64,000 bases of DNA from Elusimicrobiota bacterium. GTDB taxonomy: Bacteria > Elusimicrobiota > Elusimicrobia > F11. Of this stretch, positions 1,039 through 64,000 are shown piece after piece (position 1 is the first letter of the stretch; every line of letters begins with the position of its first letter). The position numbers were made by a program, and so were the translations under genes. The stretch lies in NCBI GenBank assembly GCA_044221725.1, contig JBGAON010000001.1:160001-224000 (forward strand). Direction: 5' to 3'. The notes under the pieces were generated by a model, which did not search any database, was not told the DNA's origin, and saw only the letters and a list, made by a program, of their open reading frames with translations.

Positions 1039-1082
1039 GGCCTCATTTTTTCGCTGTAAATTCAATCTGATTTTGTCGTTTG

Positions 1083-1099
1083 TTGGTCTGCCCGTTGCA
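1083..1099 (+). promoter_or_regulatory. Candidate sigma54 (-24/-12) promoter of the pilin operon
   Basis: TTGGTCTGCCCGTTGCA: GG(1085-86)-N10-GC(1097-98) with a TTGCA -12 box, about 50 nt upstream of the pilin ATG. Confidence 0.5.
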
Positions 1100-1147
1100 T
1101 ATATCACCTATGCAGGGAACCTATTTTCTAACCAAATGGGGAACACG

Positions 1148-5875: not shown

Positions 5876-5906
5876 TATCTGCTCCTTTTCCTGCCACGCT
5901 TGAGGC

Positions 5907-13749: not shown

Positions 13750-14088
13750 TTCCATCGTTAACCAGCATTCAGTCAAATTATCCGGTGTTTTCGTTTGTTG
13801 CATTGTTTCTTGTTTACGCGTTTTTCGCTGTGTGTTTGGCTGCCGTTGCAAAGAAGGGCGGCGAGAGTGAAAAGTCGTGGTGGGCGTGGGTTCCCGTTCT
13901 TCAGGTTCTTTTAATTTTGCGCGTCGCAAAGATTGATTGGTGGTGGATTTTCTTCTTTTTGATTCCGTTCGTTAATATTGCGATTGCGATTTATATTTGG
14001 GTTCGCGTCGCGAAGACTCTCGGCAAACACCCGGTTTGGGGCGTGCTCATGGTGGTGCCGGGTCTTGATTTGTTCGTATTGGCTTACC

Positions 14089-14105
<17 letters not shown>
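13746..14105 (+). CDS. Small membrane protein (DUF5684-like)
   Basis: W.AWVP...[13 protein letters not shown]...AKTLGK...YLAFS pattern, 3-4 TM segments. Confidence 0.65.
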
Positions 14106-16164
<2,059 letters not shown>

Positions 16165-44748: not shown

Positions 44749-45238
44749 ATCATCTTTTGATGTGGTCTCCAAGGTCGACATGCAGATCGTCGACGATGCC
44801 GTGAACGCAGCGAACAAAGAAATCACCGTCCGGTTCGATTTTCGGGGTAGCATTTCGAAATTTGAGTTGGACAAAAAAGCCGGACAAATCACGATCGTTT
44901 CGGATGACGAAGGAAAATTGAAAAGCACCGTCGAAATATTGCGTTCTCGAATTGCAAAGCGGGGGATTGAACAGAAAGCGTTGGATTTTCAAAAAGTGGA
45001 AACGGCTGCGCTGGGTGGGACCGTGCGCCAACTCGTAAAGATAGCTCAAGGCATTCCTTCCGAAAAAGCGAAACAAATGGTCGCCGACATCAAATCCGCG
45101 AAGTTAAAAGTCACGCCTTCCATTCAATCCGATCAGGTTCGCGTCACTTCGAAATCTCGTGATTCGTTGCAGGAGGCGATCGCGCTTTTGAAATCAAAGG
45201 ATTACGGCATTCCGCTTCAATTCACGAATTATCGATGA
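44738..45238 (+). CDS. yajQ: YajQ family nucleotide/c-di-GMP-binding protein
   Basis: SFDVVSKVD, RFDFRG, IQSDQVRVT and LQFTNYR motifs. Confidence 0.94.
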   Translation: MADESSFDVVSKVDMQIVDDAVNAANKEITVRFDFRGSISKFELDKKAGQITIVSDDEGKLKSTVEILRSRIAKRGIEQKALDFQKVETAALGGTVRQLVKIAQGIPSEKAKQMVADIKSAKLKVTPSIQSDQVRVTSKSRDSLQEAIALLKSKDYGIPLQFTNYR

Positions 45239-46227
45239 CGAAGTTCGGCGTTTCTTATTTCGGCAATCGGTTTCTTTCGCACGCGCGCGAAGATTTCAAA
45301 CGCATCTCGGCGAGTTGCGACTATATTGTTCACACCGTCAATGAGACGGATTTGGTTTATCACAAAGCGGTCCTTGCTCGACTGTTTCACGAGTCGCGCA
45401 AGGTTGGCCTCGAAGTGTGGGTGGATCCCTGGGGGTTGGGCGGCGTTTTTGGAGGCGAAGCTTCGTCTCAATTTCTGTTGGAGCACCGAAAATCCTGGCA
45501 AGTGATGTCGGACGGTCGGCACGTGGCAGCCGCTTGCTTGAATCGCCCTGAATGGCGGTCCTATATGAAGGAATGGATATTGAGCGTGCGCGACATGGGC
45601 GGTCAGGTCATTTTTTGGGACGAACCGCACGTGGCTTTCGATTTCGAGTCAGAGTGGGAAGGAATTTATTCGTGCTTTTGTGAGGAATGCCAACAATTGT
45701 TTAAGCGCAAATACGGTACATTGCCGTTGAACAAATTGAACGATCAGATTCGCGAGTTCCGGCGCGACACGATGCGTTCTTTTTTGCAAGAAGGGATGGC
45801 GTTCGCGCGCAGCAAGGGAATGAAAAACGCGATATGTTTGTATGCGTACCGGGGGCATGCCGAGTACGATTTGGTTTGGAAAGGGGCGGCCGAGCTGCCC
45901 GATCTCGATATTTTTGGATGCGACCCGTATTGGCACTGGCGTTTCAAACGGGACGTGACGCCGCACGTAACAGAATTTTCCGAGTATGTCGTCGAAACGG
46001 CGAAAGCAAACAAAAAGTCTTCGCAAGTGTGGATTCAGGCCATGCGTTTGCCGACGGGAACCGAACATCAAATTGGCGATGCGGTGGAAGCCGCCGTGAA
46101 AGCCGGGATTACGCACGTGGCCGCATGGAGTTTTGATGGCGGCGAATTGCTCGATACCGTATTGTCGGAACGCCCCGATGTTGTTTGGAGCGAAGTGGAA
46201 AAAGCATTTCAAAAGTTTCGCCGCTAA
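45235..46227 (+). CDS. Cytoplasmic glycoside-hydrolase-like TIM-barrel protein
   Basis: ACLNRPEWR, IFWDEPH and SCFCEEC..LFK..YG resemble GH42/GHL-type barrels with a Cys cluster. Confidence 0.55.
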   Translation: MTKFGVSYFGNRFLSHAREDFKRISASCDYIVHTVNETDLVYHKAVLARLFHESRKVGLEVWVDPWGLGGVFGGEASSQFLLEHRKSWQVMSDGRHVAAACLNRPEWRSYMKEWILSVRDMGGQVIFWDEPHVAFDFESEWEGIYSCFCEECQQLFKRKYGTLPLNKLNDQIREFRRDTMRSFLQEGMAFARSKGMKNAICLYAYRGHAEYDLVWKGAAELPDLDIFGCDPYWHWRFKRDVTPHVTEFSEYVVETAKANKKSSQVWIQAMRLPTGTEHQIGDAVEAAVKAGITHVAAWSFDGGELLDTVLSERPDVVWSEVEKAFQKFRR

Positions 46228-47981: not shown

Positions 47982-48037
47982 AATTTCATTTGACTTTCGG
48001 GCTATGGCGGTTACATTTGATGTGATTCCAAACCGCT

Positions 48038-48550
48038 ATGAGAAAAGTCGCGACAGCCATCGCATTTTTTTGTCTGCTCACATTAACTCGAGGCCATGGA
48101 TTTTCGGCCTCGATAGCCGCATCAAATCTCCCGCTTAAAATCTCGATATCTCTTCCACAAGAAGTTCTTGTAACCGATGATCTCGATGCGCGCGATGAAT
48201 TCAATCGCCCTATCCGCAGCGTTTCTGCTCGCAGGGAATTTTCCTCCTTCTGGACAAAAAGTCTAAACGCGAAAATTCTGGATTCGCTAACGCCGCTAAA
48301 GTTGCGATTCATTTCACTGCTGGCAGCCTCATGGGATGTGTTCGCTGGCCGATTGCAGAATGCAAAGCAAAAAGCGGAGCAAGTTTTGGAAATCGCTCTA
48401 ATCGGTGCCTCGAAAATTGTTCATAAAACGTTTTTTCCGTCGAAATCGATCAAAGCCGCCGACATCAATGTGAAATCTGTTCGCACAGAGAATAGTCCGC
48501 TTCGCCTTTATATTTCCCTCGTCATTTCGTCGACCCGCCTTCTTCGCTAA
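48038..48550 (+). CDS. Hypothetical exported protein; possible leader/monitor ORF
   Basis: Signal-peptide-like N-terminus; ends LYISLVISSTRLLR; candidate promoter TTGACT-16-TACATT at 47990-48017. Confidence 0.55.
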   Translation: MRKVATAIAFFCLLTLTRGHGFSASIAASNLPLKISISLPQEVLVTDDLDARDEFNRPIRSVSARREFSSFWTKSLNAKILDSLTPLKLRFISLLAASWDVFAGRLQNAKQKAEQVLEIALIGASKIVHKTFFPSKSIKAADINVKSVRTENSPLRLYISLVISSTRLLR

Positions 48551-48681
48551 TCCTCACTCCACCCGCCCTCTCTTTTTTTGTTTTTGGGGGTTCTGTCGTT
48601 TGCTCTGTTCATTTGGACGTTTGATTAACGCTTGCTCGGTCGTTGATGGAAACTGGTTGGATACGCTGGATTAGGGGATTC

Positions 48682-49239
48682 GTGGAAAATTTGGTTGCGC
48701 CATATAAAAAGTTTTCTTTTATCGCGCGCGCGCGCAGGCGGGCGGTGATTTTAATTTTGGTCTCAGTTTGTTCAACCGCTTTAACGCACGCCGAAAATAA
48801 ATCGATCTCTCCTGAGGAACAGTGGCGGAACAATCGGGAAGCGGCTCGAAAGCACACACGCGATGTCGACGTCCAACTTATCCGCGATCTCGAATCAAAC
48901 TCAGCTGAGATGGTCCGACAAGGCGCGGCCCAACAGCTCGGGAATTACGTTCAGAATCCTGCCGTGGTTCGTGCATTGGCAACAGCGCTCGAAACCGATT
49001 CCGCGAAATCCGTTCGGTGTGCTTGCGCGCTTTCCTTGGCGATTGCGCCTACGTTCCGGTCGATCACGGCATACGAACGTGTTTTGAGCGATCCGGATCC
49101 GGATTTGCGCCGACAAGTGGCGTTTGGATTGCAACGTCACCTTGCGGGGCCCAACAAATTCAAAGCCGCGGCGCTTTTGAAGAAGCTTGAGAACGATCAG
49201 GATGAATCCGTTCGGAGAATGGCGGGAGTGGCGAAGTGA
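48682..49239 (+). CDS. Exported HEAT-repeat protein
   Basis: SD AGGGG plus GTG 48682; signal peptide ...ALTHA; repeats VRQGAAQQLG, VRCACALSLA, DPDPDLRRQVAFGL and DQDESVRRMA. Confidence 0.8.
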   Translation: MENLVAPYKKFSFIARARRRAVILILVSVCSTALTHAENKSISPEEQWRNNREAARKHTRDVDVQLIRDLESNSAEMVRQGAAQQLGNYVQNPAVVRALATALETDSAKSVRCACALSLAIAPTFRSITAYERVLSDPDPDLRRQVAFGLQRHLAGPNKFKAAALLKKLENDQDESVRRMAGVAK

Positions 49240-52200
49240 AGCGAAATCACTTCAGTCCAAAAAAACTTGGAGCATTCGCGATTTTTCTTTCGCTATTTGC
49301 GGGAATCTCGAAATCGTTGTTCGCCATAACCGAAGGCCACGTTGTATACGGCGGTGCGGATCAACGAACCGTGGTGTCATCGTTTACGTCCACGGGCTGG
49401 GGAACTGCTCAGTTCTCGTTGCCGGCGAAAGACGATGGAGCGGGCGGTACCGTCGATTGGGATAAAGGGCCTGTGACTTACGCGATAATCAAATCGGCGC
49501 CATCCTGGTCGTCAAACGCTGGGCAAAAAGTTCTTGTTACGTTGGATACGCAATGTCGAATCATCGCCCAGGTTTACGATCCCAACAATCAAACATGGGG
49601 AGAACCAGAATGGATTAACAGCGACCTCATTGAAACCGACAAAGCCACATTTAACTACGGCACCTATCGCTTTTTTGACGTAGCTTATTCGTCGGAAACC
49701 CCCGTTATTTTTTATGCCAACCGGACGAATGCTCTTGCGACAAACAACCTAGGCTATAAAACATGGACCGGTTCCGATTGGGACAACACTATCAACGCGC
49801 CAGGAAATGGTGATCCGGGGCAGGTTGTTTGGGTAAAAGCGGTGACCAATCCCGTGGTAAGCAAATCGACCGAAGTTGCGGTTGTAACCATGGATAATGC
49901 TTACGATGTACAAGCAATTATTTATAACGGTTTTGGTTTTGTGCAAACAAGTACGCGTATGTTCACCGCGGATACGATCAACAGCGCGAATTACACATCA
50001 TGGGATATTGCCTATGAACAAAACAGTGGCCAACTTCGTGTATGGTACGCGGTAAATGGTAACACGATTCTCCAGGGAGCATCGTATGATGCGCCGAACT
50101 GGAATACGAATAGCGGCGACGGTTCCGATGCACTTGCCGCTATTCGGGAAGTAAAAGCTTATCCTCGTCCCAATTCGAATGATATTGCGGTTCTCTTAAA
50201 GACCAATGGTAACAATCTTAGCGGCGCGCTTTGGAATGACAACACGTTCAATGCGAGTTGGACCAATTCGCTGAACGGCGGTACCACCCTTTCAACTCTT
50301 CAATTTCCAAATGGTGGTTTTGATGGCGCTTGGACCACCGGCTTAAGTTCATTTACGGCGGTATACCTCCGGACGGCTTCCGTAAATGCTTTCCGTGCCC
50401 GTACCATTAGTAGCGCCACATGGACGGCAGAAATGGCAACAGCTCTCCCGAATTTGGATGCTACGCTAACTTCCTACGACACCGTGGTTGCTGTTGCTAC
50501 CGCAGCAGCAGGGTGCAACACCATCCAGGCCATGTTAACGGGTCGAGATTCTTTTTCGCAAGCAACGGCAGGTTACCGCGGAACGTCACGCATGATAGGA
50601 ATTAGCGTGGATGTCGCCGCACAGTCTTATGGGTCTGTCACTGATTTCGATAGAAACATTACTTTCGATGGATATCAGCCTTATGCCTTTTTGAACAATG
50701 AACTGTATTACCATCGGTATACAGCCCGTCCCAACTTGCGCCAGTTGGACACGGGAGGTGCTTGGACTCCCGAAACAAATTTGACGTCATCCACGAGTAC
50801 AATCAGATTTACACAAATCGCGTCGTCTCCAAAGCGCGATGAAAAAATTGTTGCAACATTGGATTCAAACGGCATTTTAAATGCCTTCGTGTTGCGCAGC
50901 GGAATTCTTTTTAGCTCAAAGACAATAGCCACAAACCTGTTGAACGCCGGTCCGAATGATTTTATCTGGACACCTTCTTTTGATGTGGCCTATGAAAATA
51001 CCAGCGGCAAGGCGATGATTGCCTATCCAAATCCCGGGAACGTTCGTTTTGATTATCGTCTGTGGGATCCGACGAATGCAACGTGGGGAGCCGCCGGAAC
51101 GGCTCCGTTCACGACGCAGTCCGGGCGTCCCTGGTGGATCAAACTTCGAACGAATCCGAAAACCAATTCCAATGAAATCCTTGCTGTGACGTTGGATTCA
51201 GCAGCCGATATATATGGATATGTATGGGACGCCGCGAATGCCACATTTAATACCTATTCGGCTCAAAATATTTCCGCGAACGCTGAGCATGCCACGGGCA
51301 CCAACGTGCCTCGTTACGAAACCTACGACGTCGCTTACGAACAGGGAACGGGGCGCGGAATGGTCGTATGGGATGAAGATGCGAACGATACTTTTCGATA
51401 TTGCTTCTGGGTTTCCACGGCTGCCACTCCAACATGGGATTGTCCGGGAACTCCGCCAACAGCGGGGTACAGTGGTCGCGATACCACCCAAAACGGGGCT
51501 GCCCTCCCGCGGGCATTCAAGTTAAAAGCAGATCCGAATAGCAATCAGCTCGCCTTGGCAGTGGCAGTAAGTACCGCCAATATGTATGTGAATATTTGGT
51601 CGGGTTCCGCATGGGGAACGGCCGCGGGGAGCGGTGAATCTCAAGGGCTGATTGCCGGAATCGAAGATGTGAACTCTTATAAGGGAAGTTTCGATTTGGC
51701 CTGGGAAGGAATTGGTGGATCGGAAGTTGTGTTGGCCGTGGCCCGGGCCGGTACGGCAAACTTGCAGTTTGCCTACACCAGTACCGGGACTTGGACTGTT
51801 CCGGCGGGCCTTATCGGTACGTTTGGTGACGCGGAGTATGTGCGAGCCTATGGAGATCCGTATTCAGATCGCATAGCGTTTATTGCTGACAACGAAAAAG
51901 GGCGGTTACAGAGCGTAATTTGGCAAGGGAGCGCCTTGGCTTCTGGAAATTCCAACCCGTTTGGCTCCAGCACCCCATGGGGCCGCCAAATCGATTTGCA
52001 AACACAATTCGGACCATGGGCGTTTTCTTGGACCCGAGACTACACAGCTCCCACCACAGTTGTACAGTTGCCTCAGCCGGGGACGTATTACTTCAGTTTG
52101 CCAACCATTACCGGCACGCTTTCTGATCCAACCCCGAATAACAGCGGAGCTTCGGCGGAGAGTGTTCGGCTTCAACGACAGAGTGATTTTAAATATTGGA

Positions 52201-55200
52201 ACGGTTTGGACTGGCAAGCGAGCAGCGTCTTTGTCTCAACCACGCTGACTTCCAGCACACAGTGGGCCTTCAATGTTCCGCTATCGTCATGGACGCATGG
52301 TGTAGCCTACAAGTTAAATTATTACGCCTCTGACTACGAGCAGAATTTCGAAGCCTGGGTTTCCACAATCAATTTTGTTTATGACGTTAATCAGCCAACC
52401 GTGACGTTGGTAACGCCCACCAACATGCAGTTTTTTAAGACGCCACCGGTCATCACCGGTACCGCAAACGATTCCGACGCCGACGTTAAGATGGTCGAAA
52501 TCAGTATTCAGAAAAATGGCGCATCCACGAAGTGGTTTGACGGAGGCGATTTCATTGCCGGATTCAACCCTTCCGGCAACCATACAAATTGGTTGGTCAC
52601 TTCCACTTCCAACGCAGGCTCTTACACAACATTCTCCTATGATATGCAGGCGATCTACAATCTTGGCAAACTCACCGATGCCACTTATTACGCGCAAGTC
52701 GTTGTGAAAGACAATGCGAATGACGGTGCCGGTAATTATCAGTATGGTATCTCAACGCAATCGGTTTCGTTCGTATACGATGGCACACCACCCACGTCAG
52801 GAGTTATTCAGCCCCAAAACGGGGCAAAGATAAACAACCCGGCGTCGATCTCAGGAACAGCAGCGGATCCGGCACCCATTGCGGCCAACCGAGCCGTTTT
52901 TGTCGCGATCTTAAAAAACAATGGATCCTCCACATGGTGGAACCAAAACCAAGCGATACCCGGTTGGAGCAGTTCCGTCCCTCCAATTTGGAATCTCGTC
53001 ACAAGCACAGTTGGAATACTTTCGGCGTCTGCGACGTCATGGATCTATTCTCCGGGCACGTTGGGCAGCCAAATGAGTTCCGGGCTCGATTACGTAATTC
53101 TTAGTTCCGCTGTTGATCAGGCGGGCAATGCGCAGTCGAGCTTGACGGTGGGAGTGTCATCGATCACAATTCGCGTTGATAAATCAGGTCCGATCTCCAC
53201 AATTACGTTGCCGGCCGACAGTGGCGCAGCGGGACAGGGTCGATACACTCCGGGCAACATCGGGTACGACAACAGTGGTTCGGGTGGCGCGAACACTCGG
53301 TTTGTTGGTGCTGTATCCGATACGGGTGGTGCCGGCGTGAAAACGAACTATATCCGCCTTTCCTATTTAAATGGGTCAACCACGCAGTATTGGAACGGCA
53401 CAGACTTCAGCGAACTATACTCAACGAACGGATGGCAAAACACTTCGAATACACTTTGGAGATACGACACGGATGTGCCGGCGGCCGCATTTGTTGCAGT
53501 TCTAAACGGATCCGGACATCGGCAATTTACACTTGAATCTCGCGCCGAAGATAATACGACGAACTGGGATGGTACGGGTTCCGGAAATTTCCAAACGACC
53601 TATGCGACAACGACCTTTATTATCGACAATTCGCCACCGGTCCTAGGAATATCAACTCCTACCGTCACGCAAATGACGACGTTATCGCTGATTTCCGGAA
53701 CAGCAGACGCGACGTTGGCCGATTTAAACTATGTAGAAATAAAAATTTCGACGAACGGGACCGGTCAGCTTTATTATTGGACCGGTTCCAGTTGGACAAC
53801 CACGGTGACATGGTTGTCAACCACGAAAGATAGTTCGGCGGCTTGGCATTACACGGTACCGTCGACGTTAATTGGTGATTCCAGTTACACCGTTGCGGCG
53901 CGTGCGCTTGACTATGCCGGGCAATACTCGACCGTGTATTCCACTCGGATATTTACCATTGATACGTCAAGTCCGACCGTGACGATCACGGCGCCTGCCG
54001 ACGGTGCGACATATTCGCAGGTTCAAACGTCGACACCCATGGCTGGAACCGTCATTGATCCCGGGGCGTTTGCGACAGGTGCTTCGACGGCTTCAATATC
54101 CCTTGTCGATTTGGATGGAGGCGGGAATAACTATTTTAATGGTTCGAGTTTTACAACGGGTGGTCCTTATTATGTTCCGGTGACGGGCGCGGGACTTAAC
54201 CCCTGGTCGTTTAATTTGTCGACGTTGACATTTATTAACGATCACCATTACACGGTGAACGCAAGCGGAAGAGACGCCATCGGAAACACCACTGTTTCTC
54301 CGACCAGCACATTCTTTTATGACACTGAAATCCCGACATCAACGATTCGGGCGCCTTCCCCTGGATATGTCTCCAGTCTTACCCAAATAACCGGCACGGC
54401 AATCGATGAGCGATTTGGCGTACGCAATTATGAAGCAAAATTAGGAACATATACGGTCGGTGTAGCCGTCTATGATGTGCAGGCGAACAAGTGGTTTGAT
54501 AACACAAACGATTTCAACTCTGCGAACCCGACGTATTTTCAAGTTTCAAACGATACGACGACGAGTCCAAACGTGTGGAGCTATACCGTTCCGGGGACGA
54601 TTATTTCCAAATTGGTGGACGGAAAATCGTATCGAATCGTTTCGCGCGCCGTGGATTTGGCAGGCAATGCCGAATTTGCCTCGAGCACCGCACCTGTGGG
54701 TGTGGGCATCACAATCATCTACGATCCAAATCCGCCCACCACAACAATAACCAATCCGTACGATTCAACGCCGTCGGCTGATACCACGCCGCGCATTTCT
54801 ACCGTTACAGCGTGGGGAAGTTTGCCGTCCACAATAATCGGCGAAGCTGCGGACGGTTCGGGCGCCGGAAACGGCGTGAATTTGGTTCAGCTCCGAATAT
54901 GGAAATCGGATCCGTCGATGTATTGGCAGAATGGGTCCGACTATTCGGCAAGCGCCTATTCCATTGATCCGACGGCGGCAAGTACAGCCTGGTTCAATGC
55001 GCAAACGACCAATAGCTGGGTGAATTGGTACAGCACATTCACGTATCTGTCCGATTACAAATATCACATAGAAGTTCGTGCTCGCGATCTAAGTGGACAA
55101 TTTTCAACCGCGTATGCCACGTCGAGCTTCATCATGGATCAAAATGTGCCGCAGTCGGGAATACTCGTTCCCGCGGACCAGTCCTACATGAAAAGTCTTG

Positions 55201-58200
55201 CCGAAATTACCGGTACGATGGCGGAAACCGGCAGTCGATATCAGGGCACCGTCTCGCCGGTGAAGATCGCCATTCGGCAGTTGGGCCCTCCGTCCGCGGG
55301 TACCAATAAGTGGTGGGATAATGGAAACAAGACATTCACATTAAACAACCCGCCCACAACTGACAACGCAACGCTGTATGTTTCGTCATGGAGCTTCAAC
55401 GGAATTACAAGCGGCGATCTAACTTCTGGAACTTCCTATTACATTACATCGAAAGCCATGGATGATTCTTCTCCGGTCAACGACGAAGGTTTCGGAAACG
55501 TTCGATCGTCAACTTTCACGTGGGATATTGTGGTTCCGACAGCAACAATATTCGTCCCGAATGCGGGCGGTTTCCCGCCATCGTCTGTTCTCGGTGCAAG
55601 TCCGGTCTTCTATGGCGGTTATTGGGACACTCATACGGGAATCGCCACCAATCCGTTGTGTGCGAACCGCAATGACACCACGAGCGGCACGAGCCGAATT
55701 GAGTATCTGTTGTCGAATCGTTCCGAAAATCCCGTTATCTATTGGAGACCGGATTACGACGTAGGTCAAAATCTACTTTTGACGGGTTCTTGGGTTTCAA
55801 CGGAACCTACCGATTGGCCTGACGCATGCGTGTTTGGAAGTTCGTGGACGATCACCAGCCCCGATCTCAGTGGATATGCAGGCGAAAATTTTGGATTGGT
55901 TGTGCGCGCCCAGGATCGCGCCGGGAATGTGCAGACCGTATTTACTGTGGGTGTCGCTTCAAATTCGTTTACCGTTGACACGCAAGTCCCCGACGTGAGA
56001 GTGACGGCACCCGTTGAAACTTATCGGAATACGCTGGCCGCCATATCCGCTACCGCTTCGGACAATTTGGCGACAGTTACCTCCGTGGACGTTCGAATCT
56101 CAAGCAAATCGGCGGGCGTTTGCCCGGGCGATGCGAGCTGCCGTTTTTGGGATGGATCGTATTGGGTTTCAAGCTCGTCGTGGATGGCAGTTTCATTTGT
56201 CAGCGGAAACGATTGGGCCTATACGGTTCCTGGCGGTATCGGTTTCATTGACGGTTTGAGTTACACCGTAGAAGTTCGCGGTACCGATTCCTCCGGAAAT
56301 CAAGGGAATATTGCGGGAGCTTCGGACAAATCCAAAACGTTCAAGTGGGATGTCACACCCCCATCGACATCGTTGGACAAAATTAATGGCGGAGCGGCTG
56401 GAACGCTGGTAAACGATCAAGCGTACAATTCGATGACAAGCTTCGGAGGATCTGCCTCCGATACATCCCCCGGGCTCGTCCAGTCCGTGGATATGTATAT
56501 AAAGGAAGGTGGCGGATCCGGCTCGGGCAGTGGTGTGTATTGGAATGGCGTTTCATTCAGTCCGGTGGCGAGCGCGGTTTGGCCGTTCCATTTTGTAACC
56601 ACCAATTTCTCTACAGCGACCAGTGCGATTCCGTGGGTTAACGGTCAGACATATTGGCTTCGTGCGAAAGCTCTCGACTATGCCGATAACGAAGAAGGGG
56701 GCATTGGCGTCGGCGGCACAATCGTAAAGGTTCATTACGATACGGAAAAACCTGTGAGCAAGATCACAAACGTCACAAACAATTCCTATGTGAGATCTTT
56801 GAGCACATTAAGTGGTACGGCGTCCGATATCGGCACGGGTGCAAATCCGGGATCAACGAGCAATGTTTATCTGCATCTTTACCGGAATGCTCCGTCCAAC
56901 TTAACCTGGAATTGGGACACCGCAGCATGGGATTCCGACGACGATGAGTCGAATATTGCCGATCCAGCAAGTTCCGTTTACTGGAGCACAACGAGTTACA
57001 CCGCCGGCGCGGGCGTGGGTATCGCAAGCGGCACGTGGACGCGAGCGCTTCCAAGTTTTACGGGTCTGTCTGGCAATACGTTTCGTTTGCTTGTTCGCGC
57101 AAAAGATTGGGCCGGGAATGTTGAGATTAACCCTTCCACTGCAACATTCACTTTGGACCAGTATCAGGTTGGTCCCCCCGAGCGCCCCAAAGCGATTGTT
57201 TCTTACCCGACGAGCGGAATGCACACGCCGACAAAATTAACAACGATCTCGGGAACCGGGCAGGATAACACGGGCGGGCAGCTCGCATCCGTTGGGGTAC
57301 TTTTACGCCGTTTCAATTCCAACGGCACAACCGATTATTGGGGAGGGTTCGCCTGGGGCGCTGAGCCGGGCGTATGGCCCACCGCTGTCGCTGTGGACGG
57401 GTCATTTAATTCCAGCAGCGAGGAATTCACTTTTGCAATGCCCGGGCCTGCCGAATGGACCGACGACATTCAATACGAAATCCGCGCCCGAGCGATTGAC
57501 GCGGCCGGCAATCAATCTCAGATTGAACTTTCGACGACGGTTTTCACGTACGATCCCACGGCCCCGGATACGGCCATCACATTCCCTGTGAACTCCGGGT
57601 ATATCTCTCAAACCGGAAATATCTCGGGAACCGCATCCGACACGGGCGCTGGCCAGGCGAATCTCGTGCAGGTCCGCGTTCGTCGCTATTCGGATAACAA
57701 ATTCCTCGATATCTCGGGCGGCCTTCCGGGTTCGTGGGTGGTGGACTCTTCGTCGAATACATGGAACGACACGGTGCCGTCGGGTAGCGGGCCGTGGACG
57801 TGGACGTTGTCGACCGCGGCGTGGGTGACCGGTGAAACATACGAAGCCAATGCGCGGGCGCGCGACCGTGCGTTAAACTACGATCTTTCTTTTTCCACGG
57901 TCACATTCGCAGCGGACTTTTTGGCTCCCACCTCTGTTGTCACTGGCCCCAGTAACGGTAGTTCAATATCGAGCCTAACGAGTTTGACCGGAACCGCGAT
58001 CGACAATGGTCCTTCGGGAGTCTCGAGGGTTTATGTGGCTGTCTATGGCGTGTCGCAAAACGCCTGGTGGAACAAAACCACGACCGGAACATTCAATTTG
58101 GCGGACGCCGGCGGATTGCCAGTAGATGCTCCGTCCGCGCTGTCGAACTATTGGGTTTTGGCAACAACGTCGGCCGGTGGTCCAATCAATTGGCTTGCCA

Positions 58201-61200
58201 CGGGGTCGTCCACGCCCACATTCCCGATCACGGGCGATTACCAGGTGCTGTCGGTGGCCGTTGATATTGCATCCAATATTGAATCGTTGCCCACGAGTGC
58301 CGCGCCGAATTCAAATCGCATCTCTTTCAGTTGGGTTCCGCCGGTACCCCAGTCCGTCATTCAAAAACCCGATGGATCGAATCCTCACTACAAGTCGAGC
58401 TTGGTCACCATCTCCGGTACGGCGAACAGTCCAACGGCAACAGGAGAGGAAATTCGGATAAAAGACATTACCAACGCGGGTTCCCACCTCGTCTGGAACG
58501 GACTGATTTGGGTGAGCAGTTCAAGTACATCGGGATGGGTGGCGGCCAGTTTTGGGTCGGCTCCGACGTGGAGTTATTCGGTTCCGAGCAGTTCCTGGAC
58601 CACTATTCATAGGTATCAGATCGAAGCGCGCGCCACCGGAGTTCCCACGGAAAGCCCTGTGCAGGGACCGATTTCATTTTATGTCGACGATGGAAATCCA
58701 ACCGCGACAATTGTGATGCCGGATGTTGCTTACAAAAACTCGCTGCCGATCATTTCCGGTTCGGCTTCAGATGATGGCGATTCCTTGCCCAGTGCCAACA
58801 AGACGGTTTATTTCCGTATAAAACGAACTTTGCCCTCGACGCAATACTGGGTAAGTGTTTCTTCTTCATTTGTTAACGATACGTCAATAAATTGCATAAG
58901 CGCAGTTGATAACTCATGTTTGCCGGCCACAAATCTCGGTGGGGGCATTTACAGCGTTACGCATTCAAGTTTTGTGAGTGGCGCTATTTTCGATCCCGGG
59001 GCCAGTTACACAGTGTACGAGGTGGTTAAAGACCGAGCGGGAAATGGTTACAGCACAAGTTTTGATTTCACGTGGGATGTGCTTGCGGCGACAGCGGGAA
59101 TTACTCGCCCCACGGCGTCGCAGCCAATCAATTCCCTGACGACAATTTCTGGAACAGCTGCCGACGATTTTTCTGTGTACGCGACGAGCATTTCGCTTCA
59201 GTCATTGAAAAATAACCAATGCTACGATCCGAATACAAACTTTTTCACTCAGGCATGTCCGTACTGGATCGCTACGAGCTCGGATGTTTCTGCTAACTGG
59301 CAATATGTAGATTCGAACATCAATGTGCGGCTGGGAGAAAGCAACACCTTTTACGTCTTGTTGGCGCGCGCCAATGACGTTGCCGGCAATCCGCAAGTTA
59401 ATTTCGTAGCAGGTGTTTCCTCGCGAACGTTTTTAGCAGACACAGTGGCTCCGCAGGTGGCCGTTACGTTTCCTGTTCATAATTCGATTTATAAAGGAAG
59501 TCTGATTAGTGGCGGCGGTTTTCCATTTGTTGGAACAGCAACCGATCCAGGTTCGCCATTTAATGCCGGCATTCGAAAAGTTCAGAATCGGCTTTCCTAT
59601 CTATTAAATGGCGATACCTGGTATTGGCAACCGGGACAAACGGCGTTCTCGTCCGGAACAGCGGTGGCCAGCAGTGGATGGTTCAATACATCGAACAATG
59701 CGTGGGCGTATTTTGGCGCGGTGACATGGGGGGGAACCGATCGGCAATACATACTGGAAGCCCGTGCGGAGGACGCGTCCTATTTTCCAGACGGAACGGC
59801 CACCGGAAATACGAGCGTCCCGGCAACGCTTGGCACCGACATAATCAACTTCATCGTTGATGATACGCCGCCCTCCGAAGCGATCACCGTGCCGTCGCCA
59901 ACAAACGTGCCGGGTCTAACTCTTATCTCGGGCACGGCCAATGCAACACTCTCCGGTTTAAGCCGCGTTGAGGTAAAAATTTCAACGGGCGTAGGAACAC
60001 TTTATTATTGGACGTCCTCTTCGTGGACCACCGTGGAAACTTGGCTCAACTCAGCAGCGGACAGTCAAACGGCGTGGCATTACACGGTGTCGGGCTCAAT
60101 GGTGAACGATGCCACTTATACTGTCGTAGCTCGTGCGCTTGATAATGCGGGTAATTACGCGACCACTTACTCGACGAAATCGTTCACAGTGGATTTGACA
60201 ACGCCCACCGCCTCGATAACATTTCCCACCAGCAATTCGACGTTTGCACGCTATTCGCAAATTGTCGTTTCAACTCCGGTGGCGGGAACGGCGTCGGATT
60301 CCGGTTCTTACTCGACGCAGCTTTCAACCGTGCAAATTTCGATCCATGACAATACGTCAAACAACGATTTCAACGGCGCAACTTTTGCCGGAGGAGGCCC
60401 GTACTTTTTGGGTGCTAACGGCGGATCGCTAGCCGCTTGGACCTTTAATAGCGGACTTCTCTCGCTGACGAACGATCATCAATATCAAGTGACCGCTCGC
60501 ACCAGCGACAATGCGGGAAATTATTCGGATTCGACGACGGTAACGTTTGAGTACGATATCGAAATTCCCACGTCCGCAATTACGTCTCCGGCAACAGGAA
60601 TTCGGTCGAATGTAAGCACGGTCAATGGAACCGCGAGCGACGAGCGCTTCGGCGCGCGCAGCTACGAAGCGAAAATGGGAACCTATACCGTCGGCGTCGC
60701 CATTCTTAGTGTGTCCGACGGGAAGTGGTGGGATGAGAGTCAGGTTGATTTTCAGGCCACCAATCCCATTTATTACGAGGCCGTTAATTCGACAACCGTG
60801 GCTCCCAACACGTGGTCCTATGCGGTTCCAGCGCCCCTCATCGGAATGTTAATCGACGGGAATGTTTATCGATTCGTATCTCGTTCTGTTGATTTGGCTG
60901 GCAATGTTGAATTTGGGGCGAGTACGGCGCCCGCGGGAATTGGCGTGAATGTTACGTACGATGCCACGCCGCCTTCCGTATCGATTGGTTCTCCGGTGGA
61001 CGCGACGCCCGCAGACGACACGCAGCCGCGTCTGTCCAGCTTGGGAACAATTTCCGGAGCCACAAACGACGGAACGGGCACCGGTGCCAATCTTGTGCAA
61101 GTTCGCATTTACAAATCAGATCCAGCACGATATTGGTCGTTCGGATCTGATTATTCGGCATCCGCGTTTACGATTAATACGTCGGCAGCGGATACGGCAT

Positions 61201-64000
61201 GGTTTTCAGCGGCCACCTCCGACGGATATGCGACATGGTCCACCACGTTTTCGTTCCTTTCGGATTACAAATACCACATAGAGGTCCGAGCACGAGACAA
61301 CGCAGGGAATTATTCGACCGCCTACGCAACAGCGACCTTTATTTTTGATCAAGATGTTCCGCAATCAGGAATCGTAACGCCGGCAGACAGTTCCACGGTT
61401 CGAACGTTTTCCGGAATTGTAGGAACAATGGCCGAAACGGGAACTCGTTACAATGGAACTGTTTCTCCGGTAAAAATTGCGATTAAGAACCTACAAATTG
61501 GAAAGTGGTGGAACAGCGCCAGCTCGACGTTTTCAATTTCGAGTCCGGTGCCCACAACGGACGATGCAACGCTGTATGTTTCGTCTTGGGTTTACACCGA
61601 TATTAATTCTACGAACCTCAACTCCGGATCCTCCTATTACATAACGTCACGGGCTTTTGACAATGCGAGCCCCACGAACGACGAAAATTATTTCTCGGTA
61701 AGATCCGCAACATTCACGTTTGACAATACGGCTCCTTCCATTGTTGTGCAAACTCCGAACGACAATTCTTACTTCACCGATTCAAGCGCTTTAACGATTA
61801 GTGGTACAGCAGCGGATTCAACTTCTGGAGTCGCATTGGTTCAGGTGCGAATTAAATCCGGATCGAATTATTGGACAGGGACCGAGAACGTTGCGGGCGG
61901 AAACTTTACGGCGGTTCAGGCGACCGTCACAGCTTCGTATTCGAACCCAACCTGGCAATTTCGAATTGTTCAAGCGGACCTGAGCGCGTTCACACATGCG
62001 CAATCCTACACGATCGAAGCGCGGGCATCCGATGTCGCCGGATCGACATCTTCTTTCACAGCGGTTCGTACAATCACATACGATATTGGTGTTCCCACCG
62101 CCGTCGTGACGGCGCCTCTGAACTATATCAACGCAACGCAGACCACAATTACCGGAACAGCTCAGGACAGTCCCGCGGGAATCGCCCTTGTCGAAATTGC
62201 GATATCTTCGAGCGCATCGGGTGCGGCCGGTACGTGGTACGATGGATCGGGTTTTACGGCGAATTTCTTGGATTCCGGCACACTGCGCAGCACGTCTTCT
62301 TATACGGCCAACGGCGCCGGTGCTGGAATTGATGTTTGGGGATTTACGCGCCCCGCATTTCAACAAGGAAAAACATATCTCGTGCGTTTGCGAATTACGG
62401 ATCGCGCCGGAAACGTTCGCACGCAAACGATCGGTGAAAGCGCTGCGTTGGTTTATGATGCGGTTGACCCCACAGCAGCAATTTTGGATCCCGATGCGGC
62501 CTACGAACGTTCGCTTGGGAGGATCACCGGGACAGCGGTGGATGCCGACACCGCTATTGCTCTGATCGACATCGCTATTTCAACGGGTTCATCGGCGCCG
62601 TATACCGACCAGTATTGGAATGGAAGTGCCTGGCAGCCTGGGATCTACTGGTTAAGCGCGTCGCCCACCGATGGTTCGTTTAACACCTCGAGCGAAGGTT
62701 GGTACTTTACTGGATCGACTCCCACATGGATCAATAATCGTATTTACAAAATCCAAGTAAAACCAAAAGATTCTTCGCTGAACAACAACACGATTGTTAA
62801 TTCGACGTTCACGTTTGATAACACGCCAGCGTTGGCGGCCGTTGTTGTTCCGGCGAGTTTGGCGGCATCGCAAAGTTTGACCTTGGTTTCGGGCACAATG
62901 TCGGATGCTCCAAACCCAAGCCCGACAATTGTTCAGATTGCGCTTCGTCATCCGGCCGACACATTTTGGGATGGCGCCGCATTTAATGCCTACAACGCGA
63001 ACACGTCCTGGTTAAACGCCACCTCGATTTTTGGCTCATCGTGGACGTTCACCAATTTGCCGACCTCGTGGAACGATCGCACACTTTATAAATTGTTTGT
63101 GCGCGCCATTGATGCGGCAGGCAACCCTGTGGCCGATCCTGATTTTGCGAACACGGGTCTTGAATTTTTAATCGACTACTCGTCTCCCACGTCCAGTGTT
63201 ACCTCTTTGTCCGTGGCCGTAACCAATTATGTCCGCGGTCCGTTTAATACCGTGACAGGTTCAGCGGACGACGACGCGGGTGGTTCGGGTATCGGTACCG
63301 TGAAGATTCGTGTCATTCGATCGGATGGGAATTATTTGAATGCTTCACAAAACGGGTTTGACACGAACGGGACATCGATCGATTTTCCTCTGACGACCAC
63401 GAACGGTACAAGTTGGTCGAAAACATTCATGAGCCCGGCGGCCACGTTCCAGGATGGTTATCGATACCAAATTCAATCGCGTGCGACCGATAACTCAAAT
63501 CCCGCCCTCGTTCAACAAATCTATACGACGGCGACTGTTATCGTAGATATGTCCACTCCGACGGCCGCGATCTCGAATCTTTCGACAGGATTTTTTAACA
63601 GCTCCTTTACCGTGCTGCTCGGAACGATGACGGACGTTTTAACGGGTGGAAATATTCCGTCCGGCGTGCGCTACGTAAACGTGAAAATTTTCGACGGCAC
63701 GGATGGTTCCACATGGTGGGATGGCGGAGGATGGAATAGCCAGACGTCGTTATCGGCGACTGTTTATCCAAGTTCGTGGTCCTTGAGTGGTCTTCCAACG
63801 GATTGGAGTCACGCCACAAATCTCGATGAGCGCTGGTTCCAGTTTTATGTTCAAGCGGTTGACTACGCGGGAAACACGCAATCTTTCGCGGTTCTCACAG
63901 CAACATACGACGTGCGACCTGGAACGGCGGCGATCGTCGTTCCAAACTCTGGGGTTGTTTCGTCTCTGCCCTCCATCAGCGGGACGGCGACAGACACAAC
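49236..64000 (+). CDS. Giant secreted multi-Ig-like-domain surface protein, >4,900 aa, 3' end outside window
   Basis: GTG overlaps the HEAT-gene stop (GTGA), SD GGGAG at 49224; signal peptide MKRNHFSPKKLGAFAIFLSLFAGISKSLFA. No stop was met in the segments translated by hand; the last codons read SSLPSISGTATDT. The ORF track lists no + ORF in this frame, consistent with an unterminated ORF. Confidence 0.93.
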   Translation, partial: MKRNHFSPKKLGAFAIFLSLFAGISKSLFAITEGHVVYGGADQRTVVSSFTSTGWGTAQFSLPAKDDGAGGTVDWDKGPVTYAIIKSAPSWSSNAGQKVLVTLDTQCRIIAQVYDPNNQTWGEPEWINSDLIETDKATFNYGTYRFFDVAYSSETPVIFYANRTNALATNNLGYKTWTGSDWDNTINAPGNGDPGQVVWVKAVTNPVVSKSTEVAVVTMDNAYDVQAIIYNGFGFVQTSTRMFTADTINSANYTSWDIAYEQNSGQLRVWYAVNGNTILQGASYDAPNWNTNSGDGSDALAAIREVKAYPRPNSNDIAVLLKTNGNNLSGALWNDNTFNASWTNSLNGGTTLSTLQFPNGGFDGAWTTGLSSFTAVYLRTASVNAFRARTISSATWTAEMATALPNLDATLTSYDTVVAVATAAAGCNTIQAMLTGRDSFSQATAGYRGTSRMIGISVDVAAQSYGSVTDFDRNITFDGYQPYAFLNNELYYHRYTARPNLRQLDTGGAWTPETNLTSSTSTIRFTQIASSPKRDEKIVATLDSNGILNAFVLRSGILFSSKTIATNLLNAGPNDFIWTPSFDVAYENTSGKAMIAYPNPGNVRFDYRLWDPTNATWGAAGTAPFTTQSGRPWWIKLRTNPKTNSNEILAVTLDSAADIYGYVWDAANATFNTYSAQNISANAEHATGTNVPRYETYDVAYEQGTGRGMVVWDEDANDTFRYCFWVSTAATPTWDCPGTPPTAGYSGRDTTQNGAALPRAFKLKADPNSNQLALAVAVSTANMYVNIWSGSAWGTAAGSGESQGLIAGIEDVNSYKGSFDLAWEGIGGSEVVLAVARAGTANLQFAYTSTGTWTVPAGLIGTFGDAEYVRAYGDPYSDRIAFIADNEKGRLQSVIWQGSALASGNSNPFGSSTPWGRQIDLQTQFGPWAFSWTRDYTAPTTVVQLPQPGTYYFSLPTITGTLSDPTPNNSGASAESVRLQRQSDFKYWNGLDWQASSVFVSTTLTSSTQWAFNVPLSSWTHGVAYKLNYYASDYEQNFEAWVSTINFVYDVNQPTVTLVTPTNMQFFKTPPVITGTANDSDADVKMVEISIQKNGASTKWFDGGDFIAGFNPSGNHTNWLVTSTSNAGSYTTFSYDMQAIYNLGKLTDATYYAQVVVKDNANDGAGNYQYGISTQSVSFVYDGTPPTSGVIQPQNGAKINNPASISGTAADPAPIAANRAVFVAILKNNGSSTWWNQNQAIPGWSSSVPPIWNLVTSTVGILSASATSWIYSPGTLGSQMSSGLDYVILSSAVDQAGNAQSSLTVGVSSITIRVDKSGPISTITLPADSGAAGQGRYTPGNIGYDNSGSGGANTRFVGAVSDTGGAGVKTNYIRLSYLNGSTTQYWNGTDFSELYSTNGWQNTSNTLWRYDTDVPAAAFVAVLNGSGHRQFTLESRAEDNTTNWDGTGSGNFQTTYATTTFIIDNSPPVLGISTPTVTQMTTLSLISGTADATLADLNYVEIKISTNGTGQLYYWTGSSWTTTVTWLSTTKDSSAAWHYTVPSTLIGDSSYTVAARALDYAGQYSTVYSTRIFTIDTSSPTVTITAPADGATYSQVQTSTPMAGTVIDPGAFATGASTASISLVDLDGGGNNYFNGSSFTTGGPYYVPVTGAGLNPWSFNLSTLTFINDHHYTVNASGRDAIGNTTVSPTSTFFYDTEIPTSTIRAPSPGYVSSLTQITGTAIDERFGVRNYEAKLGTYTVGVAVYDVQANKWFDNTNDFNSANPTYFQVSNDTTTSPNVWSYTVPGTIISKLVDGKSYRIVSRAVDLAGNAEFASSTAPVGVGITIIYDPNPPTTTITNPYDSTPSADTTPRISTVTAWGSLPSTIIGEAADGSGAGNGVNLVQLRIWKSDPSMYWQNGSDYSASAYSIDPTAASTAWFNAQTTNSWVNWYSTFTYLSDYKYHIEVRARDLSGQFSTAYATSSFIMDQNVPQSGILVPADQSYMKSLAEITGTMAETGSRYQGTVSPVKIAIRQLGPPSAGTNKWWDNGNKTFTLNNPPTTDNATLYVSSWSFNGITSGDLTSGTSYYITSKAMDDSSPVNDEGFGNVRSSTFTWDIVVPTATIFVPNAGGFPPSSVLGASPVFYGGYWDTHTGIATNPLCANRNDTTSGTSRIEYLLSNRSENPVIYWRPDYDVGQNLLLTGSWVSTEPTDWPDACVFGSSWTITSPDLSGYAGENFGLVVRAQDRAGNVQTVFTVGVASNSFTVDTQVPDVRVTAPVETYRNTLAAISATASDNLATVTSVDVRISSKSAGVCPGDASCRFWDGSYWVSSSSWMAVSFVSGNDWAYTVPGGIGFIDGLSYTVEVRGTDSSGNQGNIAGASDKSKTFKWDVTPPSTSLDKINGGAAGTLVNDQAYNSMTSFGGSASDTSPGLVQSVDMYIKEGGGSGSGSGVYWNGVSFSPVASAVWPFHFVTTNFSTATSAIPWVNGQTYWLRAKALDYADNEEGGIGVGGTIVKVHYDTEKPVSKITNVTNNSYVRSLSTLSGTASDIGTGANPGSTSNVYLHLYRNAPSNLTWNWDTAAWDSDDDESNIADPASSVYWSTTSYTAGAGVGIASGTWTRALPSFTGLSGNTFRLLVRAKDWAGNVEINPSTATFTLDQYQVGPPERPKAIVSYPTSGMHTPTKLTTISGTGQDNTGGQLASVGVLLRRFNSNGTTDYWGGFAWGAEPGVWPTAVAVDGSFNSSSEEFTFAMPGPAEWTDDIQYEIRARAIDAAGNQSQIELSTTVFTYDPTAPDTAITFPVNSGYISQTGNISGTASDTGAGQANLVQVRVRRYSDNKFLDISGGLPGSWVVDSSSNTWNDTVPSGSGPWTWTLSTAAWVTGETYEANARARDRALNYDLSFSTVTFAADFLAPTSVVTGPSNGSSISSLTSLTGTAIDNGPSGVSRVYVAVYGVSQNAWWNKTTTGTFNLADAGGLPVDAPSALSNYWVLATTSAGGPINWLATGSSTPTFPITGDYQVLSVAVDIASNIESLPTSAAPNSNRISFSWVPPVPQSVIQKPDGSNPHYKSSLVTISGTANSPTATGEEIRIKDITNAGSHLVWNGLIWVSSSSTSGWVAASFGSAPTWSYSVPSSSWTTIHRYQIEARATGVPTESPVQGPISFYVDDGNPTATIVMPDVAYKNSLPIISGSASDDGDSLPSANKTVYFRIKRTLPSTQYWVSVSSSFVNDTSINCISAVDNSCLPATNLGGGIYSVTHSSFVSGAIFDPGASYTVYEVVKDRAGNGYSTSFDFTWDVLAATAGITRPTASQPINSLTTISGTAADDFSVYATSISLQSLKNNQCYDPNTNFFTQACPYWIATSSDVSANWQYVDSNINVRLGESNTFYVLLARANDVAGNPQVNFVAGVSSRTFLADTVAPQVAVTFPVHNSIYKGSLISGGGFPFVGTATDPGSPFNAGIRKVQNRLSYLLNGDTWYWQPGQTAFSSGTAVASSGWFNTSNNAWAYFGAVTWGGTDRQYILEARAEDASYFPDGTATGNTSVPATLGTDIINFIVDDTPPSEAITVPSPTNVPGLTLISGTANATLSGLSRVEVKISTGVGTLYYWTSSSWTTVETWLNSAADSQTAWHYTVSGSMVNDATYTVVARALDNAGNYATTYSTKSFTVDLTTPTASITFPTSNSTFARYSQIVVSTPVAGTASDSGSYSTQLSTVQISIHDNTSNNDFNGATFAGGGPYFLGANGGSLAAWTFNSGLLSLTNDHQYQVTARTSDNAGNYSDSTTVTFEYDIEIPTSAITSPATGIRSNVSTVNGTASDERFGARSYEAKMGTYTVGVAILSVSDGKWWDESQVDFQATNPIYYEAVNSTTVAPNTWSYAVPAPLIGMLIDGNVYRFVSRSVDLAGNVEFGASTAPAGIGVNVTYDATPPSVSIGSPVDATPADDTQPRLSSLGTISGATNDGTGTGANLVQVRIYKSDPARYWSFGSDYSASAFTINTSAADTAWFSAATSDGYATWSTTFSFLSDYKYHIEVRARDNAGNYSTAYATATFIFDQDVPQSGIVTPADSSTVRTFSGIVGTMAETGTRYNGTVSPVKIAIKNLQIGKWWNSASSTFSISSPVPTTDDATLYVSSWVYTDINSTNLNSGSSYYITSRAFDNASPTNDENYFSVRSATFTFDNTAPSIVVQTPNDNSYFTDSSALTISGTAADSTSGVALVQVRIKSGSNYWTGTENVAGGNFTAVQATVTASYSNPTWQFRIVQADLSAFTHAQSYTIEARASDVAGSTSSFTAVRTITYDIGVPTAVVTAPLNYINATQTTITGTAQDSPAGIALVEIAISSSASGAAGTWYDGSGFTANFLDSGTLRSTSSYTANGAGAGIDVWGFTRPAFQQGKTYLVRLRITDRAGNVRTQTIGESAALVYDAVDPTAAILDPDAAYERSLGRITGTAVDADTAIALIDIAISTGSSAPYTDQYWNGSAWQPGIYWLSASPTDGSFNTSSEGWYFTGSTPTWINNRIYKIQVKPKDSSLNNNTIVNSTFTFDNTPALAAVVVPASLAASQSLTLVSGTMSDAPNPSPTIVQIALRHPADTFWDGAAFNAYNANTSWLNATSIFGSSWTFTNLPTSWNDRTLYKLFVRAIDAAGNPVADPDFANTGLEFLIDYSSPTSSVTSLSVAVTNYVRGPFNTVTGSADDDAGGSGIGTVKIRVIRSDGNYLNASQNGFDTNGTSIDFPLTTTNGTSWSKTFMSPAATFQDGYRYQIQSRATDNSNPALVQQIYTTATVIVDMSTPTAAISNLSTGFFNSSFTVLLGTMTDVLTGGNIPSGVRYVNVKIFDGTDGSTWWDGGGWNSQTSLSATVYPSSWSLSGLPTDWSHATNLDERWFQFYVQAVDYAGNTQSFAVLTATYDVRPGTAAIVVPNSGVVSSLPSISGTATDT
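53178..55523 (+). repeat. Six-module block, copy A, of the internal duplication in the giant gene
   Basis: Shares module order and unique peptides (DERFG.R.YEAK.GTYTVGVA, SDYKYHIEVRARD, GTVSPVKIAI) with 59439-61721. Confidence 0.9.
59439..61721 (+). repeat. Six-module block, copy B, of the internal duplication in the giant gene
   Basis: Collinear peptide match to 53178-55523 with heavy synonymous divergence. Confidence 0.9.

Follow-up and report, generated by a model that had tools for sequence, protein, structure and literature searches.

The Giant Gene and Its Surroundings

The window analyzed here is a stretch of 64,000 nucleotides, C3:160001-224000, of a 2.82-Mb Elusimicrobiota genome (G000) that consists of five contigs and is 94% complete; the window end is C3:224000. 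A reading frame opens at GTG 49236 on the + strand and was found on translation to run for 4,921 codons to the window end with no in-frame stop, as the original prediction had stated. This part represents the first 30% or so of the giant gene, which extends for a further 33.8 kb beyond the window and ends at C3:257815. The features of the locus are given below, in window positions for the upstream genes and the N-terminal part of the giant and in contig positions for the genes behind it.

48038..48550, + strand: leader gene, 170 aa with a signal-like N-terminus, upstream of the giant in 11/11 loci
48643..49239, + strand: HEAT-repeat protein, 198 aa (Pfam HEAT_2, E 1e-16)
48712..48735, + strand: T-run and (CG)n tract, in frame as F..ARAR in the first gene after the leader, conserved in the loci
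49236..49325, + strand: Sec signal peptide of the giant, residues 1-30 (sequence, hydropathy, cleavage site aligned in relatives)
49326..50705, + strand: head propeller 1, residues 31-490 (homology to propeller 2)
50706..52037, + strand: head propeller 2, residues 491-934 (AlphaFold2 model and structural matches)
52038..64000, + strand: type-A Ig-like stalk, 31 complete modules and 1 partial module in the window (module profile, Big_13, 2yn3, model)
C3:257835-259676: PorV/PorQ-family barrel with a TPR tail, first gene after the giant (NF033709 above cut-off)
C3:259739-261631: FliF-FliG-TPR fusion, after the PorV-TPR barrel (Atlas clusters, domain matches)
C3:261634-266087: two coiled-coil proteins, after the fusion
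C3:266065-266268: FlbD, after the coiled coils
C3:266259-267047: MotA, after FlbD
C3:267047-267724: MotB, after MotA

The genes upstream of the giant were compared among related loci. The leader carries a conserved LDvRD..NRP motif and conserved last residues at its stop (LLR, LLC, LLL, LRC or IRC), and showed no match in Pfam, NCBIfam or PHROGs. Its layout, with a signal-like start, about 170 aa, conserved residues at the stop and C-rich bases after it, resembles what we take to be the layout of secretion-monitor arrest peptides such as SecM, and as a guess the leader might act in this way. The T-run and (CG)n tract lies 108-215 nt past the leader stop in 11/11 loci, and about 49 loose matches to it were counted in the 2.8-Mb genome. 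Although the loci range from 41 to 63% GC, they all use the same codons here, and a role at the DNA or RNA level may be hinted at by this. The start codon of the giant and the stop codon of the HEAT gene share bases (GTGA), with a GGGAG motif 7 nt before the GTG. A HEAT or HEAT-like gene was present in 7 of 10 related loci, four of them by tblastn and three by eye; that its product is a chaperone is a guess. The original prediction had asked whether the order of leader, HEAT gene and giant is conserved, and had named the HEAT gene as the coupled partner. The leader part of this order stood, but the HEAT gene proved not to be constant, being missing from G008, G031 and G037. The main conserved partners of the giant are the downstream genes for PorV-TPR, FliF-FliG, FlbD and MotAB rather than the HEAT gene. 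In a check for a riboswitch, neither the window nor the 20 kb that start at the end of the giant had an Rfam match reaching the gathering score, and in a search for an RfaH-like antiterminator only one NusG was found in the genome. A sigma-70-like site at 47990-48017 was rejected because such sites occurred at chance level (2 found vs 1.0 expected).

Elsewhere in the window, no Pfam match at E 1e-5 was obtained for three long ORFs at 788-7616 (974, 522 and 569 aa), for a secreted-looking 379-aa ORF at 34836-35975, or for a 330-aa ORF at 45235-46227 that is kept in family relatives. A GcpE/IspG match in two stretches was found in an unusually long 728-aa frame at 13978-16164.

Architecture of the Giant Protein

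The N-terminus of the giant has basic residues followed by the sole clear hydrophobic segment of the protein, and the cleavage site at 30/31 is aligned in the three closest relatives. These results, together with the presence of two propeller domains, bear out the predicted Sec signal and head of about 900 aa. The head consists of two homologous domains of about 440 residues each (hhalign probability 99.9, E 6.7e-33). Propeller 2 was modeled together with two modules by AlphaFold2 with a 68-row alignment (pLDDT 86.2, pTM 0.79), and its strand pattern, read by eye, suggests eight blades. The top matches in a fold search of propeller 2 were propellers, with Z up to 24.2, rmsd 3.6, 321 aligned residues and 8% identity. 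The matches range from 6 to 13% identity and include WD40 proteins and lectins alike, so that the propeller fold points to no ligand. Single-sequence folding of the whole head gave a pLDDT of only 32. The head profile matched 1,894 representative proteins, no Pfam family matched the head, and an Atlas search yielded nothing but unnamed clusters and, as a lead of low recognition, BNR_4.

The stalk begins at residue 935 (base 52038). The module profile found the same 31 complete and 1 partial modules as had been predicted, each of 104-149 aa, with the partial module at residue 4892, and in the whole gene it found 68 type-A modules at residues 935-9522 (67 at a stricter score). The Ig-like nature claimed for them agrees with a Pfam Big_13 match (E 3.6e-21) and with the best PDB match of the type-A profile, 2yn3 (E 2.2e-7), which we take to be a fragment of SiiE. 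The two type-A modules that were modeled are all-beta domains with pLDDT mostly >80, in line with the expected beta folds. Because the propeller dominated the fold searches, no structural match was obtained for the Ig modules themselves, and their assignment draws on the strands of the model and on the profiles. The three Cys pairs quoted in the original prediction are all present (C2296/C2302, C3220/C3228 and C3329/C3341). An older block duplication lies within the stalk, at window positions 54933-55274 and 61143-61484, with 67% DNA identity and about 2,070 codons between the blocks.

Behind the A stalk, 27 B modules lead into a C region of 940 residues and then into 7-9 D modules; four loops of a DxDxDG-like kind and a weak match to fn3 come before the tail. 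The non-A modules number about 45, and there are about 110 stacked beta-modules in all. No solved relatives were found with the B and D profiles (best E 0.3 for one, no match for the other). Of the 16,199 residues, 14,278 fall under one of the module profiles. Pfam, NCBIfam and PHROGs yielded no enzyme or toxin family for any part of the giant, and PHROGs gave no match for the head or the base. Beyond the signal no clear membrane helix or anchor was found in the giant, with one borderline hydropathy window inside a module, and Ser-Thr dipeptides, a glycosylation signal, showed no excess (0.95-1.10 of expectation). The results support a secreted rod with a propeller head, an Ig-like stalk and a T9SS-like tail. 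The earlier description as a rod-like adhesin of >4,900 aa was right about the rod but incomplete, as the protein reaches about 16,200 aa and ends in this tail.

Continuity of the Giant Gene

The assembled frame comes to a stop at C3:233301, 8,021 codons from its start, and a second ORF of 8,005 residues occupies C3:233798-257815. The second ORF starts mid-module and has no signal peptide. The frame break sits in copy 2 of a 1.82-kb tandem duplication (C3:230785-232630 and 232600-234425). In the flanks of the duplication, most differences between the copies fall on third codon positions, a pattern expected of real divergence, and the middle of copy 2 contains 48 indel columns. The duplication was checked against the contigs of four public runs, and runs with small word shares were left out. 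Run X1 is possibly the source sample; in it the core was recovered as one 1,295-bp contig with a depth of 69.8, compared with 31.8 in the flanks and 27.7 at the junction (2.2 times the flank), indicating that two identical cores are present. The assembled letters at L001:11139-11806 were covered by none of the four runs. Run X18 contained a gap-free 1,837-bp contig that opens on three letters found only in the flank of copy 2 before it crosses the core.

The giant is a single frame in six relatives, with 13,791, 14,374, 14,811, 14,935, 15,062 and 15,660 residues from stop to stop. The orthologues of G002, G007 and G008 reach contig ends, two of them within the same repeated block, and that of G032 consists of 13,707 plus 1,113 residues with a break near its end. 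A genuine split, giving two proteins or a decaying gene, would account for the stop in the assembly and would have a parallel in G032; it would also fit with the fact that no single contig among the four runs spans both copies. Such a split is extremely improbable in view of the doubled depth, the indel-bearing letters that none of the four runs supports, the gap-free contig through copy 2, the six single-frame orthologues and the mid-module start of the second ORF. Since both copies never lie on one contig, the status as one gene is a strong inference and not a direct read: the split most probably reflects indel errors in the 1.8-kb tandem repeat of one gene. With the repeat core restored, this gene has about 16,199 codons, encodes a product of 1.71 MDa and takes up 1.7% of the genome. 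Giant genes of this kind get lost when short reads leave them in pieces or when long-read assemblies introduce frameshifts at their internal repeats. Eight frames >5,000 aa were counted in this genome when both halves of the giant are included, among them frames of 18,016 and 8,881 aa on C2, 13,703 aa on C3, and 8,776 and 8,370 aa on C5.

Sorting-Like Tail, Carrier Barrel and Candidate Translocon

The original prediction had pointed past the window for a C-terminal anchor or sorting domain. A sorting-like tail was found there, but hydropathy revealed no membrane anchor. The last 114 residues matched FlgD_ig with 25.2 bits, just below the cut-off of 27 (E 1.6e-5), and scored E 2.1e-11 with a profile built from 12 Por_Secre_tail matches of the same genome. 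The giant tail is absent from the 13 direct matches of the genome to TIGR04183, the C-terminal type A sorting domain, and its comparison with the PorU tail gave only E 0.42. An NCBIfam scan of the last 2,938 aa for a type B sorting tail gave only two FlgD matches, with E up to 0.01. The 13,703- and 8,776-aa frames of the same genome likewise end in a T9SS-like tail.

The NF033709 match of the carrier barrel begins 365 bp past the stop of the giant. The genome has 25 PorV-family matches, of which 20 are above cut-off, and most of these 20 barrels are encoded far from both motor loci. A PorV-family match lies within 1.5 kb downstream of 17/27 tail-bearing ORFs, compared with 5/1,372 other ORFs. 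The periplasmic TPR tails of the barrels contain 0 or 1 Cys in 15/15 cases and thus show no twin-Cys motif. According to PMC9143113 and 10.1101/2025.03.12.642685, type B substrates of the T9SS have a layout of one cargo and one carrier. This layout is also seen at the giant, here with a type-A-like tail.

A candidate translocon was found as a SprA-like ORF of 1,806 aa at L058:10397-15814 (contig C4), with three collinear TIGR04189 matches (best E 2.9e-16). Its best score was 57.6 bits against a cut-off of 200, in a search that had no positive control. It had no match to any Pfam family; a search for SprA_N found nothing, and the control was silent too. Relatives of this ORF occur in 39/41 genomes of the comparison set, whose members are kin to each other, including small genomes that have no giant. 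GldN and GldL each matched in 0/21 genomes, with silent controls, so this is no proof of absence, and GldM gave one noise-level match in a search that had no working positive control.

Motor Genes Behind the Giant

The fusion protein comprises a signal, a periplasmic FliF-C-like domain, one membrane helix, the FliG middle and C domains, and TPRs. For the FliF-like domain, the nearest Atlas clusters carry YscJ_FliF_C (score 0.90), and a Pfam match was obtained for the paralogue only (E 0.0044). The putative FliF identity of this domain derives from its language-model likeness and the weak Pfam match of the paralogue. In MotB the Asp, the plug and the peptidoglycan-binding (OmpA) domain are intact, and 12/12 sequences retain both this Asp and the basic residue of MotA. 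Torque residues were mapped to the numbering that we assume for E. coli (R90, E98, R281 and D288-D289). The Arg of the FliG torque helix is replaced by Gly or Asn in 16/16, the first acidic residue is kept in 16/16 and the second in 9/16, and the matching MotA Glu is replaced by Gln in 9/12. With the FliG Arg lost, and most of the MotA Glu residues as well, one half of the classical charge contact no longer exists; the torque charge pairs are R90/D288-D289 and E98/R281 according to PMC12505986. FlbD stands beside MotA in 11/11 MotA loci. Neither flagellin nor FlhA nor FliM/N was found in the 94% complete genome, with positive controls.

A complex of the barrel TPR tail with the FliF-like domain was predicted with a score of 0.55, compared with 0.00 for the best of three controls, and was graded weak. 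The mark for such predictions was reached by 116/157 solved complexes and 2/215 mismatches, and scores up to 0.60 account for 18/157 of the former and both mismatches; the score of 0.55 thus falls where the tool rates contacts more often wrong than right unless they are likely beforehand. The prediction runs share at least 43% of contacts, and the pLDDT of the partners is at least 59. No track or ring protein that could carry the fiber along the cell was identified. A DsbA gene after motB has no counterpart in the related loci that were read.

A second flagellum-free motor set is present at L059:10530-15335 (contig C5), with a TPR protein, a FliF-FliG paralogue, MotA and two MotB-like ORFs. 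It is followed by a response-regulator-like ORF (read by eye), and no giant lies within the 20 kb read.

Distribution and Variation Among Relatives

The FliF-FliG fusion was found in 32/41 genomes and flagellin in 4/41, with both in 2. The giant tail region matched strongly (E <1e-40) in 19/41 genomes and the giant head in 7/41. All 19 genomes with the tail have the fusion, which is adjacent to the giant in 11/19; the two are apart in 5/19 (G015, G025, G031, G032 and G037) and on separate contigs in 3/19. Among the nine genomes that lack the fusion, none had a strong tail match and all had the SprA-like gene, indicating that the translocon is generally independent of this motor. As the genomes are kin, these co-occurrence counts overstate independence.

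In G001, which belongs to the same genus, the head at the same locus is unrelated, whereas the A stalk shows 46% and the base 70-71% identity. The number of A modules ranges from 53 to 63 and that of B modules from 13 to 32 in four long relatives, of which three are complete and one is represented by the main frame of G032. Heads are exchanged between relatives and lineages on a base that stays conserved, and adhesins usually vary at the tip in this way and conserve the base. Two loci deviate in gene content: G023 has an extra FliG-like/MotA/MotB set between the giant and its PorV gene (L051, G023:C26:22784-32651), and G031 has a stand-alone tail protein of about 135 aa in place of the giant before PorV and the fusion (L050, G031:C1:89303-93300).

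Discussion

The machine proposed here would start from the protein described above, the product of a single gene that is about 16,199 codons long, with its signal peptide, pair of propellers, stack of about 110 beta-modules and sorting-like tail at the C-terminus. By analogy with the T9SS, this protein would be exported by Sec and then pass through the distantly related SprA-like translocon of the genome, and its tail would dock on the PorV-family barrel encoded right behind it, so that the fiber is kept on the surface. The head would lie at the far tip, about 0.4 μm out if the rise per module that we assume is right, and would bind a surface or a glycan. Structure and display together, as far as this point, are highly probable. 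In the least certain step, the periplasmic TPR tail of the barrel would contact the periplasmic FliF-like domain of the fusion, MotA5B2 stators with FlbD would drive the fusion by ion flow, and the anchored fiber would be moved, resulting in gliding on a surface or in hauling in. That the whole chain holds, with a 1.7-MDa fiber working like the gliding adhesin SprB and driven by flagellar-type parts, is a tentative proposal with odds a little short of even. Precedents for such coupling are that SprB requires the adjacent carrier SprF, according to PMC9143113, and that the periplasmic tail of SprF couples to the moving track, according to 10.1101/2025.03.12.642685.

Instead of moving the fiber, the motor could aid export or sense load. 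If it aids export, the giant would be a static adhesin, and MotAB with the FliF-FliG ring would replace GldLM/GldKN and pull the complex of barrel and cargo from the SprA-like translocon, leaving the fiber immobile. The lack of matches to GldN and GldL and the noise-level GldM match agree with this, within searches that had no working positive control, and so does the power chain of Bacteroidota, which ejects carrier-cargo complexes according to 10.1101/2025.03.12.642685; in G031, moreover, the genes for PorV and the fusion follow the stand-alone 135-aa tail protein and not a giant. However, every fusion-less genome keeps the SprA-like gene, and most of the above-cut-off barrels are encoded far from either motor locus, which makes an export motor unlikely. 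A static adhesin with a force sensor is less probable still. Here the stator and rotor would report load or contact through the barrel to the cytoplasm, or would serve another envelope job in a merely shared operon; this would suit the loss of one of the two torque charge pairs, the missing FliM/N flagellar switch, the five of 19 genomes with the giant apart from the motor genes, and the response-regulator-like ORF behind the second motor set. It fits poorly with a MotB whose Asp, plug and peptidoglycan-binding domain are intact and with the constant company of MotA and FlbD/SwrD, the latter listed as a torque enhancer in a table of PMC13277936.

The original prediction had linked the giant to attachment to a host or prey, as in Omnitrophota. 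The giants of that related phylum group share with ours a length of >10,000 residues and a surface-directed nature; several membrane helices and carbohydrate-degrading domains are reported for them in 10.1101/2023.11.21.568195. The giant shows no membrane-helix run or degradative domains and has a regular build of head, stalk and base with a sorting tail, and prey attachment therefore finds no support here. A contact weapon or prey-capture device of the kind proposed for Omnitrophota would make use of exchangeable heads and great length for target recognition, and Elusimicrobiota are rich in huge proteins, with a host-associated life suggested in PMC11573180. Nevertheless, the module profiles leave little of the protein uncovered, no enzyme or toxin family was matched and no membrane helices follow the signal, making such a device very unlikely.

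The fiber that a motor is proposed to move is best compared with SprB and SprF of Flavobacterium johnsoniae. The two systems would share a huge protein of repeats that leaves by Sec and carries a sorting tail, or in the giant a sorting-like one, at its C-terminus, an adjacent FadL-type barrel with a periplasmic C-terminal extension, an ion-driven motor and a translocon of the SprA kind, a candidate for which is encoded in the genome. In contrast to SprB (669 kDa), the giant is 2.5 times larger and belongs to Elusimicrobiota, and its tail resembles type A/FlgD-Ig instead of type B. SprF has a twin-Cys tail, whereas the barrel here is of the PorV/PorQ family with a TPR tail of 0-1 Cys, and in place of the Gld motor there are MotAB, FlbD and FliF-FliG, GldL, M and N not being found (controls silent). 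The giant is very probably a SprB-like adhesin that leaves by Sec and a SprA-like channel, is held through its tail by a barrel of its own and bears the propellers at its tip. With SiiE-type BIg adhesins (Pfam Big_13, Big_3_2) it has in common a long Ig-like stack, the D..P...D.AGN pattern, length change by block duplication and a binding end far from the cell. SiiE-type adhesins are type I secreted and have no Sec signal, whereas the giant starts with a signal peptide and propellers, contains three module types besides the Ig-like one, and has a T9SS-like tail and a PorV neighbor. The motor genes share with the flagellar core (FliF MS ring, FliG, MotA5B2, FlbD/SwrD) MotA, MotB with plug and OmpA domain, the FliG middle and C domains, and FlbD. 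They differ from it in that the FliF-C-like domain and FliG form one chain with TPRs, the torque-helix Arg is lost, the genes follow a giant and a barrel, and flagellin, FlhA and FliM/N are not found in the genome.

According to 10.1101/2022.07.08.499144, most free-living Elusimicrobiota carry motAB, flbD and fliG without flagella, and the role of MotAB is called unclear there. Very large uncharacterized proteins have been noted in the phylum in 10.1101/2023.11.21.568195, PMC11573180 and PMC12057145, and SwrD is listed as a torque enhancer in PMC13277936. Our literature search found no paper joining giant, barrel and motor, and the supplements of the two preprints may list family members. The locus ties the orphan motAB/fliG and the huge proteins of the phylum to one operon and names the parts: cargo tail, carrier barrel, contact of TPR to rotor, and stator. 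The giant itself would be a further version of the T9SS surface-adhesin theme, and it is the motor link that would make a new machine. Our main reading, to which we give a probability of roughly 0.4, is that free-living Elusimicrobiota may possess an undescribed machine for surface motility or reeling, in which an adhesin of 14,000-16,000 residues with exchangeable heads would be displayed in a T9SS-like manner on its own PorV-TPR barrel and moved by a flagellum-free minimal motor of FliF-FliG ring, FlbD and MotAB. If the fiber moves, flagellar stators would drive a non-flagellar load, which bears on the origin of the flagellar motor and on the reach of T9SS-like secretion beyond Bacteroidota. 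If the machine is real, it would do the work of Bacteroidota gliding with a motor of another kind, and the orphan motAB/fliG genes of the phylum would be explained.
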